Source: Naegleria gruberi (Eukaryota). Taken from it: a DNA stretch of 64,000 bases. The notes below the pieces were generated by a model, which worked only from the letters and a program-made list of their open reading frames with translations, was not told where the DNA came from and did not search any database. The stretch's first letter is position 1; the number at the start of each line of letters is the position of its first letter. The DNA lies in NCBI GenBank assembly GCA_000004985.1, contig GG738916.1; one strand, written 5' to 3'. A program made the position numbers and the translations under genes. Shown here piece after piece: positions 2,359 through 62,829 of this stretch.

Positions 2359-4512
2359 ATGGCAAATAGTAATAACGATAGTGATAAAAACAAGACGACA
2401 ACTAAAACAACAGAAAGTCCGAATGGTAATGCTACAAGTCCAAGGATAAAGCAATCTTCTTTGAGTAACATCAATTCGGATGCTACTGGAAAGGAAGAAC
2501 TTCATGTAAGCTTTAACTTGAGTAATATTTCGAGTACGAGTACGAATGGTTTTGGTAATGGTAGTAGGGAGAATTCATTTAGAATTGTTAAACCAAATCA
2601 AAGACTAGGTGATGGCAATGAGGAAATCATTGAATTGGCAGATGCAGTAATATTGCAAAATGATGAGGAAGAATTAATGATTGACGAATCGAGTCCTGAG
2701 AATAGAAATTCAATGGAATGGTCTGGTAGTTTGGCAGAAGATGGCGAACAAGCAGAATTGTTTCGAGAATTGAAACAAGACAGAAAAGAAAGAAAGAATC
2801 AAGAACAGTGGAAATGGTTGTGGAACATGATTAAGGAAACTGTCACTGTATTTCTTCCTTTGGGATTGACAACTTTTGTTGGTGGTATTCAAATAGTATG
2901 TAGTAGAAAGAAAACAATTCATTGTAACAAGTTAAAATAGGTTCAAAAGAAATTTGTAGATAAGAAGAAATGGTTGACTGAGGCAGAATTTATGGAGATT
3001 TATGCTCTTTCTCAAAGCTTACCTGGTGCCATTATTAGTCAAGTAGTATTTTCGATAGCCATGTTAAGACATGGTTTTTGGTCTGGCTTTTTAGCCAATC
3101 TACTCTTTTGTGGACCTGGTTTTATTGCCAATTTGCTTTTTGGTTGGCTGATGGCTGACATTAGTATTGATGATAACTCGCCGAGATGGGTTCTCAACTT
3201 GCAAAACGGTTTGGCTTGTTCAGGTATTGCATTTGCTGTGAGCTCAGCGTTCAGAATGGCCTCAATGTTAAATAAGAGCAAAAGTAGAGCATTTTCATTT
3301 ATATTGGCAGGATTTGTTGCCATGTTGACAATGGTTGCCAAACCAATGTGGATCTTACCAATTCTCATATTTGGAGGTGCTTTTGTTAGTTACTTCTTCT
3401 CCCTCATTTATGATCGTATTATGAGCAGAATAGACAAGTATGAAATTAGAAAGCAAGCTGCTCAAAAGAAGGATAACGAAGAAGACGAGGAAGAAACCTC
3501 GCTGACCATCAAACAAAAGATTATCTTTGTTTACTTATTCTTCAAGAGCTTTTTCAAAAAGCTTCCTGTTGAACCAGCTCAACAAGATAACCAAGAACCT
3601 CAAGCAGAAACCCAAACAGTAGTGGAAGAAACTCAAGAGAAACGAAAACCAAAGGACAAGTTTTCTAAAAATGTTAGAACTCACTCACCTCTTTGGTTGG
3701 GCATTTCCATGCTTTTGATTTTTGCTCTATTATTTGTTGTTTTGATTGTTACCTCAGTAATTTTCGAAACTTACAAAAAGCCAACCATAACAAATGGAGT
3801 AGATGTGTTTAAGGAGACTATAATTATGTCTAATTTTTTCTACAAGTACGGAACATTGATTTTTGGAGGTGGAGTTGGAGGTATTCCTCTTTTGAGAAAT
3901 GAAATGGTTGAACGAAAGTGGGTAACCGAGCAACAGTTCATGAATGGCTTTTCAATTTCTAATGCCCTCGTTGGTCCAAAGCATAGTGTTGCAGCATTCT
4001 ATGGTGCCTGTATTGGTGCCAAGTTTGCTGAAGCATTAGTAAATAGTGGCTCCAATAGAACTATCAATGGAACATATCTGAATGAAACTCTCATTTTTGG
4101 AAATGAAACAAACTCAAACAACTTTACTAATCCGAATCAAATACGTGTGAAACAACGTTCCAGTGCTCTCTATTACATTTTACCGCCACTGTTAGGAGTA
4201 ATTGCAGGTTTACTTTTCCATTTACCTGGATATCTGACAATGGCAGGTTGCCTTCCATTGTGGAGAAAGATTAGAGAAAATAATGTAATCAAATTATCAT
4301 TAATAGGTGTTAATGCAGTTTGTGTAGGATTTGTAGTTTCCAATTCAATCTCTATGTGGATAGACAATGTTGGAACCAGTTCATATCTGGCTGCTGCCAC
4401 AATATTTTGCTTCTTAATGAACTTTTTTGATTTTTCTCCTCCAATAATTGTGATAGCTGGTGCTATTTTATCCATTGTAGCAGGTGAAATTGGCTTTGCA
4501 GTAGGTTGGTAA
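2359..4512 (+). CDS. Chromate ion transporter (CHR/ChrA family), two exons (2359..2895 and 2941..4512), with an N/S/T-rich N-terminal extension
   Basis: Exon 1 ends ...LGLTTFVGGIQI at a GTATGT donor. The 45-nt intron ends AG. Exon 2 continues GFKRNLVDKKKWLTEAEFMEIYALSQSLPGAIISQ... and later LIFGGGVGGIPLLRNEMVERKWVTEQQFMNGFSISNALVGPKH. This is the duplicated ChrA half-domain signature. The protein has many transmembrane segments. Confidence 0.75.
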
Positions 4513-50823: not shown

Positions 50824-51977
50824 TTACTTCTTTACAATATAATCAAAAACAATAGGTTGTTCCACACCATCCGATGAAGCATTAATAAATAGAGTGTTTC
50901 CAACTTTCTGATATCCATAAGCTCCATGTACATGTCCAAAACATGAAACTTTCAAATTGGTCAAATATTGTAATCTCTCTTTCAAAGCATAACTTCCATA
51001 CTTTCCACTTCCATCAAGAATCTTATTTGGTGGTGTATGGGTCATTAATATATCAGTATCTGTATCAATTAAATCATAAACAGATTTCAAATCCTCTTCC
51101 TTTTTGTAAAACCCTGTATTGTCCAATAATTTTGTAAAGTAATTTTCACCTTGAAAGTCACCCATGTTAGGGACGAAAGGTGTTCCAAATATTTTGACTC
51201 CCTCAATGGTAATACTGGAATTCACCAATACAGCAGTGGCATTCGAAAGTAATTCATCATATTTTTCTTTTGTTTTTGGGTATTCCTAAAATACATTCCA
51301 ATAAATTTCCAATAGTGTCAAATATATTCGAAACTTACATGATTTCCACAAATCACAATCTTGTGCTTGTAATTTACAGTTCCAAGCCAATCATTAAACC
51401 TGGAAACTTCTGCATTCGATCCAGCATATGTAAAATCACCACAATGCAATAATACATCTGCCTCCTGTGGTAAATTCAACATTCCATGTTTGTTATGAGT
51501 GTCACTCGTCACTACAAATCTAACCACTCTCAACCCATCCTCTGAAATTGTCTCATTCTCTTCATTTATCTTGAACGGAACTACTTTACATTGTTCCACT
51601 TCCTTCTTAATTTTTAATTTCAATTCCTCGGCCAAACTTTTTGGTCGAGCAGAGGAAGAACAAGCATCTTCCTTTGGAATATATTTCAATGAGGAAGGAG
51701 GTGGAGGAACTCTCATTGTGTTGGCAGATGGAGGAGGAGGTGGAGGAACATTTCTATTTGGAGAAACAGCAATGACATTAAACTTTCTGATTGGATTGAG
51801 CAGAATTTTCTTGTTTTCATTTGATACAATGAGTGGGGGTGGAGGAGGAGGTGTTATTGATGAAATAATATTATTATCGTGAGTAGTAGTAGTAGTATTG
51901 GAATCGGAATGGTGAGGGCTATTAGTAGAGATCATTTTTTTTAATTGTTGTTTTGAGTGAACTTCTCTTTTGTTCAA
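50824..51977 (-). CDS. Calcineurin-like metallophosphoesterase, two exons (51977..about 51342 and about 51288..50824), with a Pro/Thr-rich N-terminus
   Basis: VVTSDTHNKH. HCGDFTY. ICGNH, then a GTAAGT donor and a 53-nt intron ending TAG, then EYPKTKEKYDE... which completes the GNHE motif. Then GHVHGAYGYQ. Confidence 0.8.
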
Positions 51978-52075
51978 ATGAATACATACAAGTTCAAAGT
52001 TCCTATCAACTCTAATTTATTGACAGCAACGTCGAATCATAAAAGATATAATCAATTAGCTAATTGTGAGAGAGT

Positions 52076-53114
52076 TTAATAATTATCAATGTAGGCAGCT
52101 CTATCATTAGCTCTATTCAACCATCCTTGCAAGAATTTGTTATTGGCAGTTCCTGGTCTTCCCCAATACAAGTAATCTTGTCTGTGTCTTTCGTTTAATT
52201 GTCTGGCGAAAGCTTTTGGATCTTGTCCATTGTAACCACCAAATTCATTAAGGTATTGTCTTGATCTACCAGTACCAGAGTTGACAGCAATATCAGAACA
52301 GACATAGAAAGCAGGTTGTGGTAAGTTAGAACATCCTCCAGGTCCAAAATAATTTTCAGAATATAATTGAGCTGCACTTGATTTGTAAAGTGATGGATTT
52401 TGGTTATAGGCATAATAGCAAAAGTCAGCTGGATGACCAGAGAAACCATTATTAAATGGTGCAAAGAAGCCATTTCTATTATTCCAACATTCTCTGTAAA
52501 ATTTCAAAATTTCAGTTTTTCGAATACAATTGAAAAGAAACTTACGATGGAGTAACACCCATACATGTATAACCAATCTTTCCTTGGAATTCATTACCAG
52601 AATCACTTGCCCAATTTTGACATCTTCCTTCACTCTTGAATATTTCTGCCAATGTTTCAGCTGCCTTATCACCAGTCTTGCTGTCAGGTCCAGAATATGA
52701 TTCTTGACAGGCCATCTTTAAAAATTGAGCAGAAACCCATTGATTATCTCCAATACGAGCCCACTTGACACCATTAACATTACTAGTTTCGTATACAGTT
52801 ACTTGAGTTTCTGGTCCTAAAGTTTTAACAACTTGTCCACCAGGAGAAGTTCTAACATTCAATGCATTATCAACATTGGTACAACGAGTTTCAGGCCAGA
52901 ATGATTCACTATCAGACAATCCAGAAAAAGAGGATTTGGTCAATTGGTGTCTAATTTCTTGAACGATAGCTTTGGCCAATCTTCTTTCCAAGCTCAAGGC
53001 ATTCAAGCTGCTTGCAACCAACAGGACAGAAAACAACACGGTAGCAACAATGAGTGTGCTAGATTTCATTATTGTGTTATTTTTTTTGTGAGATGCTTTT
53101 TCGTTACTAGACAA
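52076..53114 (-). CDS. Secreted protein with a signal peptide, a bacterial-type SH3b domain, and a C-terminal Cys-containing lysozyme or cell-wall-hydrolase-like domain, two exons
   Basis: Signal peptide: MKSSTLIVATVLFSVLLVASS. SH3b-like domain: ALNVRTSPGGQVVKTLGPETQVTVYETSNVNGVKWARIGDNQWVSAQFL. Exon 1 ends ...GYTCMGVTPS at GTAAGT. The 52-nt intron ends CAG. Exon 2 continues ECWNNRNGFFAPFNNGFSGHPADFCYYAYN... and runs to the stop. The two overlapping supplied ORFs are the two exons of one gene. Confidence 0.6.
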
Positions 53115-53567
53115 CGCTGCATTCTTGATGATTCACCCACTTTCGTACATGTGATGAATTTAGCCAATTTACCCTTGAGAAATTATAATTATCTCTCTGA
53201 AGTTATTTTGAACCATTTATTTGCTTTCAAATATCACCAAGTTCAAATCAAAATAAATAGAAAAATATTGTAATAATGAAAACCTAAATTATTAAGGTAA
53301 TACACTCAAAAGTTCAGACTTTATCATCCAATACATTCTAAAACAAAGACCTGCAACTCTTTCAATATTTGCAACTGTTGTAATTGATTCAGTATTGCAG
53401 AATTATTATTGGTGGGTTGCAACACACAAATTCAGCACTGCACTGTTACATTCTTAATAAGGTTACGTTCTGAATATAATCTTGAAGCATTAAATTGTCA
53501 AAGATGAAATATTCAGCTAAATGCATCCTAAAAGTCTTTTCGTGCCCTTTTTCAAAAAATTAAAAAA

Positions 53568-55320
53568 ATGCTTTCTTTTTTACGCAAGGCTTTGACACAC
53601 AACAATAACAATAATAATAACAATAAGAATAACAATACTGATAACAATAATAATAATAATAGTGATAACAATCATTTTATTCCTAATGATATTTTAATAA
53701 TAATATTTCAATTTCTTAATCAACAAGATTATATAAAAATATCATTTGTTTGTAGATATTGGAGATTTGTTGTTCAACAACCATTCCGAAAGGAATTTAC
53801 AAATTTTATTTTAAACTCTTCATATTCAATAGTTTATTGTACATTTATTATTAATGCATTTGAGTTTTTTAAATTCTTTTCTTCCATAACATTATAACAC
53901 TGTACCTGAATCAACATTTAAAACTCTGCTTTCTTCAATGAAATTACAAAGTTTATTTATTGATTCTTGTGTTGTTAAAAATAATATACCATTCAATTCT
54001 GTAAAACAATCTAATATAACTGAATTAGGATTAAATTGTAAAATGAAAAAGAAAGATTTACGTGCTTTATTTATTGTAATTCCAAATTTGAAACATTTAA
54101 GTTTAGGAATGGTAGTAACCGAATGTTTAATTAACACAGAATCATTTCTGAGTACACATTGTCATAAATTAGAAACACTCCATTTACAATTATTACCTGA
54201 AAATCAAAAAAAAATTGTAAAATTATTACATGGAATATTTAATCCATCAACAACAATATCCAATCTCATTGATATTAGAATATTTGTAACAGATAATAAT
54301 CCAACAAGTAATAGAAAATTAAATAATTTTACATTTAATTTTAATTCATTTCCAAATTTAAAATATTTATTTCTTGATATTACCTATATTTATACATTAG
54401 AATCAATTAGTAATGTATTAAATTCAAATAATATTTCAAAATTACAAGAATTTGGATTTGGAACTATTAGAAAAGCTATTGAAAAATTACAATTTAATTC
54501 GAGTGAAAATTTACAAAATTTAAAAAAATTATTTTTAAATAGAACAGAAATGATGACAAATATTGATAATCTTCCTTCATTAGAATTATTATATATAGAT
54601 GAATATGCAAAAAAACATTATTCCGCTACAAAATATTCAAAACCATGGAATTTAGCATCTAATGTGAAAATGCCATCTCTAAAATATTTACATTTAAATC
54701 TTTTTAATGAAACTCATTTACCTGATCGATTAAATGTGGAACCATTTAAAAATATTAAATATTTTTATTTTGAATCTGAATATAATATTGATTTATCAGA
54801 ATTGAGTAAATTAAATTTAGAAATATTAATTCTTAAAATTTCTGAAGAATATAATAAGAATATACTTCATCACATTTCTAAAATATCAACATTGAGAGAT
54901 TTAACATTTAGTAATCCTATTAGTGAAATTGATTTGAAATTACTTTGTAAATTACCAAATTTAGAATATCTGAATATTAGATTGGAATTTTATAGTGAAA
55001 CATCTTTTACTTTTAATTCACTAACTACACTCTCAATTCATTCAAAAAATTTGAAAGGATTAAATTTCTTTCAAATATCAAATTTACCAAAATTTAAAAC
55101 TTTACTAATTCGTAATCCTTATGATAATAACTATACATGGTGGTTGCAACCATTATTTCCAAATTTACAAATAATTAAAGCAAGTACTGACAGTTTTGGA
55201 ATATTTTTAACATCTCAATATAATGATGATATGAATTTTGGTGAGTATGAAGTTTCACAAAGAGCAGCAAATCATTTCCAAAATGAAAACGTATGGCTCT
55301 TTCCAAAAAAATTTATTTAA
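53568..55320 (+). pseudogene. F-box/LRR gene, copy A of a tandem pair. It is disrupted by a small deletion that creates a stop after codon 109; the ORF resumes at 53938.
   Basis: About 95% identical to copy B (59373..61145). Near 53880, copy A reads ttataacactg where copy B reads ttatttttccataatactg. This gives a TAA in frame. The poly-N tract at the N-terminus differs in length between the copies. Confidence 0.55.
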
Positions 55321-56031
55321 TATTAAAGCTCTGTATCAGAGGTTTCTCCTTGGTCACAGTTGATTTTTTAGAAGGATCTCCTTCAGCCAATATCTTTGGT
55401 TTCAAATGGTGAATTCAAGCAAGCCAATGCTGAGAAGGCCAAAGTTGACAATGATTATGTTTGTAAACATTTCAAATCCTATTTTTCAAAAAATTCAAAT
55501 AAAAAGTTGGTACATCATCATAGTTGTTATTTATCATCATTATAAAAGCCTCTTGGATGGTTCAAGAGATGCTGAATTCAAATGTTATAGAGATTGAACA
55601 GAATATTGTTGTACATTATATTTATTGTACCCAAGAAGGAACTTTTGGAATAAAGGACAGTTCCTTCAAGTTTACCAATTCAAATGCCTTTCATTTGGAA
55701 TAAGCCAAGCTCCCAGGAACTCACCAAGATTATGAAAAAACTGGTAACCAAGTGGAGACAACAAGGTATTATTTTGTTCCTAAAATTCAGAAAGAAAAGG
55801 GTGTCTTTACTCCCTGACTCAAACTGAAGCAATTTAGACTTCAAACGTAATATTTCCATCATTTGCAAGCCTAAGAACTGAAAAAGGATAAGGAATTGCT
55901 TTAGTGTTGAGAAATGAAGGAGAATTTTGTGAAGAATTAAGACAGGCCAAAATTAAATCCTTACAAGTCTGATTTCTAACTTGGAAAATTTATTTATTTA
56001 TTGATTGGCCCATGGTTTTACCTCATTTCCA

Positions 56032-58504
56032 TTATTTTCTGTTTACTCTCAACCAATAATCGATAATAACTTTCAAGAAATTATTGCATGGTATATTTTC
56101 TTGACAAGATAATTGGATTTTTTGTAAATAATCAAGAGTTAAATTATTTGAGCAAAATATCTTGAAATACTCAACTAGCTCTCTACAATCATTATTATTT
56201 TGTGAAACTGAAGCTAAATTTAGTAATATAATAAATTCAGTATCATTAATGGAATATAATTTTTCAACAATCAAGATACAGACATGTTTAACAATCCATG
56301 TAATATCCAATTGTTGTGCAATGATTAAAATACCAACCAAATCATTCAATTTAAGGTAATTGAACTCATATCCATAACATAATTTACATATGATTTGTAA
56401 TATTGTATTAATTTTAGCTGAATTATTGAACAAATCAATAATCCAATGATCTGATACCATCATTTCAATGAATTCATACAAGTCAACCACATTATTTTCA
56501 TTATTTTTAAATAGAATATTTAAAACTGAACTATGAACGGATAGAATTGATTTATGTAATTGCAATAATTCATTTTTATCCTTATTAATAATTACATGAA
56601 TATCACTATTACTTTCATCATTATATAATAATTTTAATGATTCAGTTACATTTTTGGCAATATTTTCAAGATTATCAATTTTATAATTAATTTGTTTAAA
56701 TGGTTGTTTAACATTATTAATTTTATCTTGAATAATTTCGAATAATGGATCTGATTTCAATAAAGTTGCATTTTCTTTAATAAATGCAAGACACTTATTT
56801 GCCAACAATAGCAAAATACTATTTTTAGCTTGTTTTAAAATATTTAAAGAAAGATAATTATTAACTATTCGTAAAATCCTCATAATGTTATCTACATTCA
56901 TTCTATTTGAAATGTCATTAAATAACAATAATTTAATTTCATGCTTGATATCATTAATATCATTTAATATAAATAGACAAGTTACTAAATTTAATTCTAA
57001 TTCTCCAAATGAAATGAAATTAATAAATTTATCATAATTACTAAATAAATCATCTATATTTAAACAATTTAAATCAATAATTGCGTTTTTAATTAAATAA
57101 TATAAAACTTTTTGGTCATTCTCATTTAAATGTTCAATTATATCATTTTTAATTAAATTATAAAAATCATTTGAAATATTTTTTAATAAATTTAAATCTA
57201 AATAAAAATTAGAATTAATTTCATAATTGAACTTAAAATTATCAGTTACCATAATATCATTAATCTTGAGACTATTCTCATTATCTGTTTCATGAATAAA
57301 AATAGTAAAATTTTTACCACAACAAATTTGAATTTCATCACCTTCCTTAATAGTAAATGGTAATTCAATTAATTTTAGTTCATTGGCTGATTTATTAGCA
57401 TATCCTAATTCGCCAAATTCATTAGATCCAAATGAATAGAACTTTTGGTCTACTGTTTGCAAAACACTGTGGAAGGTACCACTTTCCATATTAATAATAT
57501 TATCCATATTTGCTTGTTTAGAATTATAGTCAATATATTTGCATTCATTATTATATAACGATAAAATTTGATATTCATTCAATATTAATTGATCATAATT
57601 TTTCTCAAATTTAAACTCATTATAATTATTATGTAATTTAATTACTTTTTTAGGATTGTAATAATCTGCCAAGCCATAATCAATTAAAGTATAATCTAGA
57701 ATTTACAATAGAAGAATCATTAAAAATAATGAAACTAGTTCTTCCATTACATTTAATATCCTTAATATCTTCAATATTCTTATTAACTAATTTGGTAACA
57801 TTCATAAAATTATTTAAGGTAAAATAATCTTCAACATGTAATTTACCATTTACAATACTTTCAATTACAAATGGTTGGAATGATTGTGAATATTCATTCA
57901 TTCCACAAACATACAATTCATTTTCAAATGTTGTGAAAAATGTCAAATGAAATGTTACAAATATTTTGTTTACTTTTAACTTTTCTAAATTTGTATTTTG
58001 TAATAAATTAACGGCTACATCATTTGATTTTTTAGCAATGATAGCCAATTGTCCATGTTCATTATTACCAATACCAAATATGGAATTTAATTTAGATAAA
58101 AATACAACATGTTCTTTACCAATCGCAAAATCAATAATTTTGTCACTAGTATTTAAATTATTAAATTTAATCAATGTAGGAATATTAGAAATATTATTAA
58201 TAAATGAACAATTTCCCATTTTGTAAACATATCCCTTACGCGTAAGAAATATGCACAATTGATCTTGACTTTTAAATTTAATAATCTTATCATTAATTAA
58301 ATAATTTTGTAAATAATCAATTTTATCAAAACATGTATCATTTAATTTTGTAACAGTAATAATATCACTTTGTTTCTTCCAGAATCCATCTCCGCATCCG
58401 TAAACAAATTGTGATTTAGAAGAATTAATACCGAAAGCAGTGTTATTAGGTTCTGTTTCGTCGTCCACTACTTGATCAACATGGTGAATGGTGAATTGAT
58501 TCAT
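56032..58504 (-). CDS. RCC1-like repeat plus BTB/POZ domain protein. It is split into two ORFs (58504..57680 and 57672..56032) by a stop or frameshift. Coding is extremely AT-rich.
   Basis: RCC1-type blades: YGCGDGFW, FGIGNNEHGQLA, FGSNEFGELGY. A C-terminal BTB-like block: DLYEFIEMMVSDHWIIDLFNNSAKINTILQIICKLCYGYEF...LIIAQQLDI. The two ORFs are 7 nt apart and in different frames. Confidence 0.55.
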
Positions 58505-59372
58505 TTTTTTTTATAGAGTGGTCTCTCGGTTGTTATTGATACAAGAGACATTAATAAACTTGTACACCTTTTATTTTGTTATAGATTGTTACAACAAATA
58601 TTGTGCTTACTCAGCATTGCATTCATTGGTTTTGTCTAGCTAGATCGGCGGAAATGAAATCTCATTCGTGTGATTGATGTGAGAGATGTTACGCGCCAAA
58701 ATTTCTACACCAAAAAATAAGCAAAGCCACTTTTTCGAACTCTTATTTGAAAATCCATTAAGGAAATTAAACTCTCAGTACTTTCAAGAAATACCTCTAC
58801 TCATCATCATTGGTATTTAATTCAATCAACATAAATCAGCATCAATTTGGAATATTTCAATTAGAGTAGCTGGGATACATCTCACCAAAAGTAATAAGAG
58901 CAATATTGTGTGATGGTGTTTCTTCTTGGAATGAAGAAAGTTGCCAACCTCGGAAATATCAAACATTATCATTAAGCTGTAATTCAACATCACATTATAT
59001 TTATTTTTATATTAATAGTAATACTTGTTCATTAGGAATTTCTTCAACTAATTAATATATTTTCATCATGAATTCCAAAAACATTGTATGATTATTAGGG
59101 ATGTCTAATCTAATATCACCATCAAGAGAGTTGGATTATTTGTATTCATCGAGTTGTGGAATTTTACTTCATCATACCTTATCATCAGCAAGCTCACTTC
59201 AGATCATTAAGGTAAATATCTTAATGGTCATCATCAACCAGTTGCAGATTAAAACTGTGATTTAATGTCTCAATTAAGTTGATTGCTATGTTTGGAAAAT
59301 ACACGAACGATTCAATATTTCAATTTTTAAAAAGGAAGGAAGATTCTTCATGACTTTCAAAAAATTAAAAAA

Positions 59373-61145
59373 ATGCTTTCTTTTTTGCACAAGGCTTTGA
59401 CACACAACAATAACAAGAATAACAATAATAATACTAATAATACTAATAACAATACTGATAACAATAATAATAGTGATAACAATAATTTTATTCCCAATGA
59501 TATTTTAATAATAATATTTCAATTTCTCAATCAACAAGATTATATAAAAATATCATTTGTTTGTAGATATTGGAGATTTGTTGTTCAACAACCATTCCGA
59601 AAGGAATTTACAAATTATATTTTAAACTCTTCATATTCAATAGTTTATTGTACATTTATTATTAATGCATTTGAGTTTTTTAAATTCTTTTCTTCCATAA
59701 CATTATTTTTCCATAATACTGTACCTGAATCAACATTTAAAGCTCTACTTTCTTCAATGAAATTACAAAGTTTATTTATTGATTCTTGTGTTGCTAAAAA
59801 TAATATACCATTCAATTCTATAAAACAATCTAATATAACTGAATTAGGATTAAATTGTAAAATGAAAAAGAAAGATTTACGTGCTTTATTTATTGCACTT
59901 CCAAATTTGAAACATTTAAGTTTAGGAACGGTAGTAACAGAATGTTTAATTAGCACGGAATTATTTCTGAGTACACATTGTCATAAATTAGAAACACTCC
60001 ATTTACAATTATTACCTGAAAATCAAAAAAAAATTGTAAAATTATTAAATGGAATATTTAATCCATCAACAACAACAATATCCAATCTCATTGATATTAG
60101 AATATTTGTAAAAGAATATTATACAACAAGTAATAGAAAATTACATAATTTTACATTTAATTTTAATTCATTTCCAAATTTAAAATATTTATTTCTTGAT
60201 ATTACCTATATTTATACATTAGAATCAATTAGCAATGTATTAAATTCAAATAATATTTCAAAATTACAAGAATTTGGATTTGGAACTATTAGAAAAGCTA
60301 TTGAAAAATTACAATTTAATTCGAGTGAAAATTTACAAAATTTAAAAAAATTATTTTTAAATAGAACAGAAATGATGACAAATATTGATAATCTTCCTTC
60401 ATTAGAATTATTATATATAGATGAATATGCAAAAAAACATTATTCCGCTACAAAATATTCAAAACCATGGAATTTAGCATCTAATGTGAAAATGCCATCT
60501 CTAAAATATTTACATTTAAATCTTTTTAATGAAACTCATTTACCTGATCGATTAAATGTGGAATCATTTAAAAATATTAAATATTTTTATTTTGAATCAG
60601 AATATAATATTGATTTATCAGAATTGAGTAAATTAAATTTAGAAATATTAATTCTTAACATTTCTTTAAAATATAATAAGAATATATTTCATCACATTTC
60701 TAAAATATCAACATTGAGAGATTTAACATTTAGTAATCCTATTAGTGAAATTGATTTGAAATTACTTTGTAAATTACCAAATTTAGAATATCTTTATATT
60801 ACATTGGAATTTTATAGTGAAACATTTTTTACTTTTAATTCACTAACTACACTTTCAATTCATTCAGATAATTTGAAAGAATTAAATTTCTTTCAAATAT
60901 CAAATTTACCAAAATTGAAAACTTTACTAATTCGTAATCCTTTTGATAATAACCATACATGGTGGTTGCAACAATTGTTTCCAAATTTACAAATAATTAA
61001 TGCAAGTACTAACAGTATAGGAATATTTTCAACATCATCTCAATATAATGATGGTATGAATTTTGGTGAGTATGAAGTTTCACAAAGAGCAGCAAATTAT
61101 TTACAAAATGAATATGTATGGCTCTTTCCAAAAAAATTTATTTAA
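59373..61145 (+). CDS. F-box/LRR protein, intact copy B of the tandem pair, 590 aa
   Basis: F-box: IPNDILIIIFQFLNQQDYIKISFVCRYWRFVVQQPF. L-rich repeats follow (LKHLSLG, LETLHLQ, LKYLFLD, LEYLYITLEF). The N-terminus is poly-N. Confidence 0.7.
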   Translation: MLSFLHKALTHNNNKNNNNNTNNTNNNTDNNNNSDNNNFIPNDILIIIFQFLNQQDYIKISFVCRYWRFVVQQPFRKEFTNYILNSSYSIVYCTFIINAFEFFKFFSSITLFFHNTVPESTFKALLSSMKLQSLFIDSCVAKNNIPFNSIKQSNITELGLNCKMKKKDLRALFIALPNLKHLSLGTVVTECLISTELFLSTHCHKLETLHLQLLPENQKKIVKLLNGIFNPSTTTISNLIDIRIFVKEYYTTSNRKLHNFTFNFNSFPNLKYLFLDITYIYTLESISNVLNSNNISKLQEFGFGTIRKAIEKLQFNSSENLQNLKKLFLNRTEMMTNIDNLPSLELLYIDEYAKKHYSATKYSKPWNLASNVKMPSLKYLHLNLFNETHLPDRLNVESFKNIKYFYFESEYNIDLSELSKLNLEILILNISLKYNKNIFHHISKISTLRDLTFSNPISEIDLKLLCKLPNLEYLYITLEFYSETFFTFNSLTTLSIHSDNLKELNFFQISNLPKLKTLLIRNPFDNNHTWWLQQLFPNLQIINASTNSIGIFSTSSQYNDGMNFGEYEVSQRAANYLQNEYVWLFPKKFI

Positions 61146-61282
61146 CATTAAAGCTCTGTATCAGAAGTTTCTCCTTGGTCAAATCTGAATAGTGAATTCA
61201 AGTAAGGCCAAAGTTGACAATGTTCAATGAATAATGTTTGTAAACATTTCAAATCCTATTTTCAAAAAATTCAAATAAAAAA

Positions 61283-62829
61283 ATGTCAAGATTAACTTTT
61301 CCGTTACTTCTTGCTACATTGATAATCGCTTTCGTTTTGGTGTCATCAGCATCATTATCGGATCGGGTTAATGCCTTGACTCCACTCATAAAAACATCAA
61401 AATTATTCTCCATCAAACAACAGAATAATAACAAGCAATTATTTATTACTGCTACAATTTATCCTAATTTTAAAATTGTTCATGGAGTGAAGGATTTAAA
61501 ATTTGGTTTGGCTACTATTGAATATAATGATCAGTTACATGCACAAGGATTTGATACATTGGTTTTAGAGACGAGACAATCTACAAGTTTGGTGGAAGAC
61601 TTTGCTATTGCTCAGGGGGCTGGATATTTGGAAGGCTATTTGACAATGCAGAGAATTTACAATCATTTTGTGAATATTAATAGTGTATCGTGGTGGAATG
61701 CTAAGGAGAATAGAACTTTGGGAATGTCAAGTAATATTCGTCAATTTTTCAAAGATCAAAANACATGGATTTTACAACAAGTGAGCCAACACATGAATGG
61801 AACAACAGAAGAGGATTTATATTGGCNNNNNNNNNNNNNNNNNNNNNNNNNNNNNNNNNNNNNNNNNNNNNNNNNNACTGATATTATTTCAGTCATACCG
61901 TTGGGTGGGTATTTAGTGCCTTGACAAGAATGATGAAGACATACACTCTCAATTTTGCAAATCCACTCACAAAGTCTCGCACAGTGACATTTTCGAGTTA
62001 TCCTGGATCATTAGGCAGTAATGATGACTATTATCAAACTGATGGTGGTCTTGTTGTTATCGAGACAACCATTGGCATTTTGAATAATACTCTCTACGAT
62101 AATACTCATCCTCAATCATTGTTGAGTTGGTTTAGAGTTGTCTTGGCCAATAGAATGGCTACAAGTGGCAGAGAATGGTTTGAAGTTTTTAGTATTAATA
62201 ATGGAGGAACCTATAATAATGAGTGGATGATTCTCGATGTGAAAAAGTTTATTCCTGGTCAAGCTCAATTGACAAAGGATTTATTCTGGGTAATTGAACA
62301 AATACCTGGAACAGTGGTGGGATCAGATCAAACAAATCTTCTCTCCACTCGCGGATACTTTGCATCTTATAATGTTCCTTTCTATCCTTCCATTTATGAA
62401 AAAACTGGATATGCAGAATATGTGAAGAAATTTCCAGAGACTTATCATTATATGAGTTATGATAAGTGTGCCAGATCTGAAATATTCAGAAGAGATCAAC
62501 ATTTAGTCAAAGATCTGCCATCCATGCAACGAATTATGCAATATGATAATTATCATGATGAATTTTCATTCGGAAATCCTGACTGGGTAATCTCAGCAAG
62601 AGACGATTTAGCTCCAAATGTTCCAAATGGACAAAAGAGTTGTGGAGGTGGATATGACTGTAAAATATCATCTATTTCTAAATGGAATTTTGTATTTTTC
62701 AGAAGTGGACCAGCTCACCAATTTACACCTGTTTTCAAGTTTGAGAATCAATGTGGACCTCAATACTCACATGTTGGATTGCCTTTGGAGTGGAACTTCC
62801 CTTGGATTCAATTGGATAGCAGAGTTTAA
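61283..62829 (+). CDS. Phospholipase B-like (PLBD/LAMA family) protein, interrupted by a 50-N assembly gap
   Basis: Signal-like N-terminus: FPLLLATLIIAFVLVSSAS. Conserved PLB-like blocks: AQGAGYLEGYLT, NNEWMILD, SYNVPFYPSIYEKTGY. The two supplied ORFs, 61283..61924 and 61921..62829, are one gene read across the gap. Confidence 0.75.
61827..61876. other. Assembly gap: a run of 50 N, plus an isolated N at 61762
   Basis: A literal N run in the sequence. Confidence 0.99.

Follow-up and report, generated by a model that had tools for sequence, protein, structure and literature searches.

A Naegleria gruberi gene predicted to encode a secreted SH3b-GH108 peptidoglycan hydrolase of probable bacterial ancestry

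The GH108 N-acetylmuramidases include SagA of Brucella abortus (PDB 7DNP), TtsA of Salmonella Typhi, and endolysins of the coliphage N4 gp61 type. SagA is an experimentally active muramidase in which Glu17, Asp26, and Thr31 are catalytic, and its residues Phe151 and Trp155 contact N-acetylmuramic acid (MurNAc) (PMC8334348). Two parallel cases are known from microbial eukaryotes: laterally acquired NlpC/P60 hydrolases with bacterial SH3 domains in Trichomonas vaginalis (PDB 6BIM/6BIQ; PMC6299479) and muramidases of fungi (GH24 and GH184) that bear SH3-like domains for wall binding (PMC10394673). Here, we describe the gene NAEGRDRAFT_74668 of Naegleria gruberi, located at positions 52076..53069 (minus strand) of a 64,000-nucleotide stretch of contig GG738916.1 (assembly GCA_000004985.1), hereafter called the window. 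Its product combines a bacterial-type SH3 (SH3b) domain with a GH108 catalytic domain, and we propose, with a probability of about 80% for the explanation as a whole, that it is a functional, secreted or phagolysosomal peptidoglycan hydrolase whose catalytic domain came from a bacterial GH108 lineage.

The mechanism is expected to be like that of SagA, TtsA, and the N4 gp61-type endolysins. The Naegleria protein differs from these by its motif (EGxC-QN instead of EGGY-xN), by Cys150 and Cys169 in place of Tyr/Phe and Asn, by an insertion of ∼7 residues between the catalytic Asp and Thr, by a shortened diaminopimelic acid (DAP)-pocket motif (DGxIGxxT in the known enzymes), by a PG_binding_3 match that is not significant, and by its N-terminal signal peptide and SH3b domain, all encoded in a eukaryotic gene with an intron. 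The closest bacterial proteins, about 45 to 51% identical in the catalytic domain, are GH108 proteins of cyanobacteria (Kamptonema, Phormidium nigroviride, and Microcoleus; WP_007358322.1). Like the Naegleria protein, they have the loop insertion and the cysteine pairs Cys150-Cys169 and Cys229-Cys240, but an N-terminal membrane anchor takes the place of the signal peptide and SH3b domain, and they lack both Cys177-Cys200 and introns. The Trichomonas enzymes are cysteine endopeptidases that cut the peptide stem, not glycosidases, and their acquisition is unrelated; 6bim was among the fold matches of the SH3b domain. The fungal muramidases differ from the Naegleria protein in family, domain order, and origin; 8b2s was the top Foldseek match.

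Gene structure and integration in the host genome

Reverse-complement reading, splicing, and translation of the window yielded a two-exon gene on the minus strand (53069..52076, coding sequence [CDS] plus intron). It starts with an ATG at 53069 and comprises exon 1 (53069..52546, with a 3' end reading ...GGT GTT ACT CCA TC), a spliceosomal intron of 52 nt (52545..52494; GTAAGT...TTTTACAG, of the GT..AG type and ending in ...ACAG) that splits codon 175 after its second base, exon 2 (52493..52079), which encodes the remainder of GH108 together with the bundle of helices at the C terminus, and a TAA stop codon (52078..52076). The joined CDS of 942 nt is in frame, and its 313-aa product matches residue for residue EFC37653.1 (XP_002670397.1; UniProt D2VZZ0, locus NAEGRDRAFT_74668), which bears the database name "predicted protein." The intron, already called in the initial annotation of this DNA, therefore agrees with the official gene model. 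That annotation had placed the upstream end of the gene at 53114, which is 45 nt too far: position 53114 is the TTG that opens a mechanical open reading frame (ORF), and the ATG lies downstream of it.

The gene is physically integrated in the Naegleria genome, as evidenced by its intron, its host-like composition, its annotated neighbors, and its intron-bearing paralog and orthologues. Its GC content (0.38) and GC content at third codon positions (GC3, 0.25) lie within the range of the neighboring genes, leaving no compositional trace of foreignness. Three long neighboring ORFs correspond exactly to N. gruberi proteins, all from one 245-kb scaffold, which identifies the window as nuclear DNA of N. 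gruberi NEG-M, and annotated N. gruberi genes flank the gene on this scaffold (F-box/leucine-rich repeat [LRR], RCC1-BTB, phospholipase B, and metallophosphoesterase). The earlier statements that the gene is host integrated and that the flanking genes are eukaryotic were thus both borne out.

Domain architecture and active site

The order of the domains is signal peptide, helical/disordered segment, SH3b (aa ∼59 to 121), linker, and GH108 (aa ∼135 to 313). We first consider the C-terminal domain, which had been described as lysozyme or cell wall hydrolase-like and Cys containing. Residues 141 to 248 matched the Pfam family Glyco_hydro_108 (PF05838) with 51.4 bits, well above the gathering score of 21.2 (E value of 1.6e-13, profile positions 2 to 85 of 85), as did 15 of 18 homologues, and the domain contains six Cys. 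A CHAP or NlpC/P60 identity was considered and rejected, as the Pfam scan gave GH108. The NCBIfam scan of the protein gave no match, and PHROGs gave a remote match to the endolysin profile phrog_315. Sequence matches to PDB entries were marginal (phmmer E value of 0.14 for 7dnp, improved only to 0.0023 with the family profile), so that GH108 membership was settled by fold comparison. In the AlphaFold2 model of the window protein itself (mean predicted local distance difference test [pLDDT] of 84.1), aa 135 to 312 form an all-helical domain, with pLDDT mostly above 90 and the two-lobed, lysozyme-like GH108 fold. It superposed on B. abortus SagA (7dnp) with a score of 16.3 and a deviation of 2.1 Å over 149 of 174 residues, and on two other GH108-type structures, 2ikb and 2nr7, with scores of 10.1 and 9.9, respectively. 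By sequence, residues, and fold, the protein qualifies as a member of GH108.

The catalytic loop SEGRCQNWASDSGNEFQGKIGYTCMGVT lies in the part of the domain encoded by exon 1 (aa 135 to 175; 52546..52667, minus strand), as located by Pfam and alignment. The family profile pairs "FSDEGGYVDHPKDPGG" of SagA with "FKSEGRCQNWASDSGN," which places Glu147 on Glu17 and Asp156 on Asp26; Glu147 (codon GAA, 52629..52631, minus strand) is thereby the predicted general acid. In a profile alignment of 55 sequences, composed of the Cys-type clade and canonical GH108 outgroups, Asp156, Thr168, and Trp299, the last a predicted substrate-contacting residue, were kept in 55/55 sequences, Glu147 in 53/55 (it is invariant in the family alignment), and Phe295 in 45/55, with Tyr in 5 others. 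From this conservation of the catalytic residues, we therefore predict an enzyme equipped for activity. Toward the C terminus, in exon 2, the match to PG_binding_3 (PF09374) was weak (aa 264 to 303, 12.9 bits for a gathering score of 24.6). The helical bundle is structurally present in this region and F295 and W299 of its FLxGWLNR motif are conserved; we describe it as a degenerate, PG_binding_3-like region.

The initial annotation had also proposed a signal peptide and a bacterial SH3b domain. The former (aa 1 to 24, MKSSTLIVATVLFSVLLVASSLNA; 52998..53069, minus strand) was predicted by inspection: its n-region contains K, the hydrophobic core extends over 17 residues (mean Kyte-Doolittle value of 2.30), and the cleavage motif, LNA, resembles A-x-A. 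In our family alignment, the N termini of all the members are comparable. The SH3b domain (aa ∼59 to 121; 52707..52895, minus strand), which has Cys63 and Cys121 at its edges, contains the string LNVRTSPGG...WVSAQFL at aa 70 to 118. Pfam SH3_3 (PF08239) scored 25.7 bits over aa 69 to 118 (E value of 1.3e-5, profile positions 2 to 54 of 54), a near miss at the gathering score of 27. We nevertheless accepted the SH3b identity because homologues match SH3_3 (12 of 18 scanned singly, at E values of ≤0.01, the best being 8.7e-19) and because solved bacterial SH3b folds match the model. The latter indeed contains an SH3b beta-barrel at aa 60 to 113 (pLDDT of 89 to 95), and fold comparison retrieved a bacterial SH3b domain (9ovi; score of 8.0, 1.5 Å), an SH3-like domain (8b2g; 7.9), an SH3b-type domain (9kz1; 7.8), and the SH3b domain of lysostaphin (6rk4; 7.2). 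A word-index search with the 76-aa SH3b segment alone gave no candidates. We also looked at the possibility that the C-terminal domain belongs to a eukaryote-specific family and that the SH3b call fails together with it; the results above gave a GH108 domain and an SH3b fold instead.

The mature protein contains eight Cys, six within the C-terminal domain plus two flanking the SH3b domain. In the subclade defined below, every member has Cys in columns 150 and 169, where canonical GH108 has Tyr/Phe and Asn/Tyr, respectively. Columns 229 and 240 are jointly Cys in nearly all subclade members, while columns 177 and 200 are jointly Cys only in the Naegleria-centered group, with Gly/Ala and Val elsewhere. 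Cys63 and Cys121, which bracket the SH3b barrel, are at least 90% conserved among SH3b-bearing members. Since the Cys pairs co-occur column by column, we propose that four disulfides, C63-C121, C150-C169, C177-C200, and C229-C240, are probable.

Two further segments complete the protein. Residues 25 to 58 (LSLERRLAKAIVQEIRHQL...; 52896..52997, minus strand) are predicted to form an amphipathic helix and then a disordered stretch; in the AlphaFold2 model, the helix extends to about aa 48, and pLDDT falls below 50 at aa 45 to 57. Nothing known matches this segment, which is kept in the N. gruberi paralog and in one metagenome relative and which could be a propeptide or a linker. The acidic interdomain linker (aa 122 to 134; 52668..52706, minus strand) has a pI of 4.3, is disordered (pLDDT below 50 at aa 124 to 132), and varies in length among homologues.

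Distribution and origin of the family

A word-index search returned 24 relatives, many of which are unnamed metagenome proteins. Among them were two proteins from N. lovaniensis and N. fowleri (56 to 66% identity), one from the gut fungus Anaeromyces robustus (41% identity), and a "glycosyl hydrolase 108 family protein" from a metagenome-assembled genome (MAG; 51% identity across the catalytic domain). Cluster look-up yielded a second N. gruberi paralog (EFC42362.1, 321 aa) and FDP41_009823 of N. fowleri, in which SH3b occurs twice in tandem. Conservation across N. lovaniensis, N. fowleri, and the N. gruberi paralog indicates purifying selection. The gene is already in databases without a name, and its orthologues carry automatic domain labels, the UniRef names of homologues including "SH3b domain-containing protein." The family is also found beyond Naegleria, in anaerobic fungi and other protists: GH108 transcripts of anaerobic gut fungi were noted in a horizontal-transfer survey (10.1101/487215), one marine protist transcript from MMETSP/EukProt has the same layout of signal peptide, SH3b, and GH108, and several metagenome homologues sit on contigs with eukaryotic-type genes (full-length ABC transporter, BTB, RCC1, Kelch, and ankyrin).

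When 1.84 billion protein representatives were searched exhaustively with the profile, 830 matched at E values of ≤1e-3 but only 36 at E values of ≤1e-30. Beyond these, scores dropped to about 50 to 70 bits; these lower matches are canonical GH108 proteins, for the most part aligned with only the C-terminal half of the profile. This drop after 36 members delineates a small, well-separated, Cys-bearing GH108 subclade. Its named bacterial members are nearly all cyanobacterial, the named isolates being Kamptonema and Phormidium nigroviride, and when 185,579 prokaryotic species, each represented by one genome, were scanned for the pattern, only seven loci emerged, in Kamptonema, Microcoleus, a Sericytochromatia MAG, and an "Actinomycetota" MAG. 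The closest bacterial homologue lies on a contig of "Actinomycetota bacterium MAG69" (GCA_050262755.1, JBLNEP010000210.1). This contig has a compact bacterial gene organization and a GC content of 0.48, cyanobacterium-like rather than actinobacterial, and its homologue is similar to those of Kamptonema, down to the anchor at the N terminus; the contig may be cyanobacterial and mis-binned. A pattern scan of IMG/VR and a tblastn search of INPHARED/GenBank phages found no relative. We rejected a phage origin, given these negative searches and a match to phrog_315 that is only remote.

We built a neighbor-joining tree on 184 profile columns of 55 sequences, rooted on canonical GH108 and with 200 bootstraps, in which many tips are unlabeled metagenome sequences. 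The Cys-type clade was recovered with 94% bootstrap support. Its basal branches are membrane-anchored, bacterial-looking sequences, including a fusion with an M23 peptidase and the cyanobacterial group (94%), and the crown above them is made of eukaryote-like sequences. Within a Naegleria-centered group (99%), one branch (87%) joined both N. gruberi paralogs with a pair of metagenome proteins that lack SH3, and the other (100%) was made up of the proteins from N. lovaniensis and N. fowleri. The bacterial members lack the SH3b domain, which is present in many eukaryote-like members, others having Cys-rich modules; hence, the catalytic domain may already have left bacteria when the SH3b fusion was formed or exchanged.

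The intron of the N. gruberi paralog interrupts the same codon as that of NAEGRDRAFT_74668, and the tandem-SH3b gene of N. fowleri has two introns ∼7 to 10 codons upstream of the N. gruberi site, flanking a micro-exon of 10 nt. This micro-exon (GGTAAAATTG) sits inside the catalytic loop, and the FDP41_009823 locus spans 2501 to 3917 of its contig. Because the composition is host-like, the paralog has the same intron, and the intron sites differ in N. fowleri, the gene was probably acquired long ago and only later gained introns and was duplicated, which is unlike a recent, Naegleria-specific event. Of the earlier suggestion of a horizontally acquired bacteriolytic gene, the horizontal origin appears well supported by the sequence comparisons, but the transfer seems older and wider than one specific to Naegleria. 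We propose that a bacterial GH108 lineage, with its closest living members in filamentous cyanobacteria, was the source of the catalytic domain, which since its ancient acquisition would have taken on introns and the codon usage of the host and been duplicated in Naegleria, the date and direction of the transfer being inferred from the introns and the tree.

The opposite direction is the only one of the four alternatives that we considered to retain an appreciable, although low, probability. The Cys-type GH108 clade would then be originally eukaryotic, by ancient acquisition or invention, a few cyanobacteria would have received the gene from eukaryotes, and the Naegleria gene would not itself stem from a transfer out of a bacterium into Naegleria. 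The restriction of close bacterial members to a handful of cyanobacterial genera among the 185,579 species genomes, the diversity of the eukaryote-like members, and the lack of members in the phage collections would fit such a history. However, GH108 as a whole is a family of bacteria and phages (the 830 profile matches and the endolysin profile phrog_315), the membrane-anchored sequences of bacterial appearance form a paraphyletic base below the eukaryote-like crown in the outgroup-rooted tree, and the eukaryotic distribution is patchy (Heterolobosea, Neocallimastigomycota, and scattered protists).

More tentatively, and with less than even confidence, we suggest that the subclade represents an undescribed, disulfide-stapled GH108 subfamily (EGxCQN...TCxG, longer loop, reduced DAP pocket). 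It might have been born in filamentous cyanobacteria and have spread repeatedly between kingdoms and from eukaryote to eukaryote, reaching unrelated hosts that eat bacteria or live in guts (Heterolobosea, Neocallimastigomycota, and marine protists). Each lineage would have added its own module for wall targeting (SH3b or Cys-rich knots), and the substrate range would differ from that of the canonical GH108 endolysins.

Proposed function and genomic surroundings

N. gruberi is a bacterivorous heterolobosean amoeboflagellate, the kind of host that the initial annotation had in mind for such a protein. The gene is best explained, on the sequence and model data, as encoding a putative bacteriolytic enzyme for digestion or defense, acting in the phagolysosome or in the medium. 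With its signal peptide, the protein would enter the secretory and endolysosomal route, the SH3b domain would dock it onto bacterial peptidoglycan, and the GH108 domain would cut the glycan strand at the bond between MurNAc and N-acetylglucosamine through a T4-lysozyme-like mechanism, with Glu147 as the acid and Asp156 and Thr168 positioning the water. The expected outcome is the lysis of engulfed or nearby bacteria, and the four probable disulfides would stabilize the protein in an oxidizing, protease-rich compartment.

Several points weigh against this proposal. The SH3_3 score of the window protein alone is 1.3 bits short of the Pfam threshold. The catalytic motif EGxC (EGRC in the window protein) departs from the canonical EGGY, the aligned rows show the ∼7-residue insertion between the catalytic Asp and Thr relative to canonical GH108, and the DAP-pocket motif DGVIGAKT of SagA aligns to a shortened QDP-KAF with a 3-residue deletion; because of these three differences, specificity or activity could differ from those of the characterized GH108 enzymes. 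As to the origin, the crown backbone has less than 50% support, which leaves the number of transfers, the branching order, and the monophyly of the eukaryotic sequences unsupported, and the direction of transfer is read from the neighbor-joining tree only. Our literature search found no paper on this gene, its locus tags, or GH108 in Naegleria. A different Naegleria "lysozyme," A0A6A5BDE0 of N. fowleri, was inactive on Micrococcus when produced in E. coli (PMC11964265), and a pangenome study mentioned multiple "lysozymes" of the genus but did not dissect them (PMC9928731).

Two other functions were weighed, both of which we regard as unlikely. In the first, the lysozyme fold would act on a glycan other than peptidoglycan, such as a chitosan- or chitin-like polymer of fungal prey or of the amoeba's own cyst wall, and the protein would be a chitosanase-like or wall-remodeling enzyme. 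In the second, slightly less probable still, the protein would bind peptidoglycan without catalytic activity, as a receptor or opsonin serving in pattern recognition for prey capture. The undetectable in vitro activity of the other Naegleria lysozyme-like protein (PMC11964265) and the presence of two wall-binding regions, SH3b and the C-terminal bundle, are in line with such a receptor. Yet the triad E147/D156/T168 is invariant or nearly so in about 50 members, bacterial ones included, which is unexpected for a nonenzyme.

With this hydrolase, GH108 would join the families of peptidoglycan hydrolases that microbial eukaryotes have borrowed from bacteria (GH25, GH24, and NlpC/P60), and a function can be proposed for the "predicted protein" of N. 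gruberi and for its orthologues in the pathogen N. fowleri. The case does not overturn current understanding, a predator borrowing an antibacterial gene being unsurprising; only the features of the subclade, namely, its Cys staples, loop insertion, narrow cyanobacterial distribution, and eukaryotic spread, offer a moderately novel angle. The patchy distribution between cyanobacteria and eukaryotes makes it a tractable case of antibacterial genes crossing domains and gaining new binding modules. The compact, probably disulfide-stabilized muramidase scaffold with built-in SH3b targeting could interest enzybiotic work.

Bacterial contamination or misassembly of the scaffold, which the typically bacterial nature of both domains might evoke, is refuted by the 52-nt spliceosomal intron that cuts the catalytic domain, the GC3 and codon usage like those of the neighboring genes, the annotated Naegleria genes on both sides, an independent metagenome contig with the same locus at 98.5% identity, and the intron-bearing N. 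fowleri orthologues and N. gruberi paralog, and we assign it a negligible probability.

The metagenome contig in question (ENA ERZ929261, PRJEB11402) is 4.2 kb long and matches positions 50826 to 53405 of the window (2.58 kb), including the whole lysozyme gene. Its other 1.6 kb have no further match to the window, and the N. gruberi paralog is found, at about 99% identity, on another contig of that sample. This suggests that the sample held an N. gruberi-like strain with a different local arrangement.

Downstream of the gene, an AATAAA hexamer that starts 55 nt past the stop codon (52021..52016, minus strand), found by sequence search, may serve as a polyadenylation signal. A gene for a calcineurin-like metallophosphoesterase follows directly on the same strand (50824 to 51977, minus strand); it is split by one or more introns and encodes an N-terminal region that is proline rich and poly-T/N. 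On the other side, the gene adjoins a low-GC block (53,200 to 61,500), with a GC content of 0.19 to 0.30 per kb versus 0.32 to 0.38 elsewhere and an ORF GC3 of 0.09 to 0.15 versus 0.24 to 0.34. This block contains two F-box/LRR gene copies (53568..55320 and 59373..61145) that are 94 to 97% identical and 5.8 kb apart, with an RCC1-BTB gene (56032..58504) on the opposite strand between them. The arrangement resembles the outcome of a recent segmental duplication within a gene family that is very AT rich and evolves fast. Phospholipase B is typically a lysosomal enzyme, and a gene for such a protein, with a signal peptide and a strong Pfam match (Phospholip_B, E value of 7e-103), lies about 8 kb from the lysozyme gene (61283 to 62829, plus strand); it is broken by a 50-N assembly gap, with N-runs at 61762 and 61827 to 61876.

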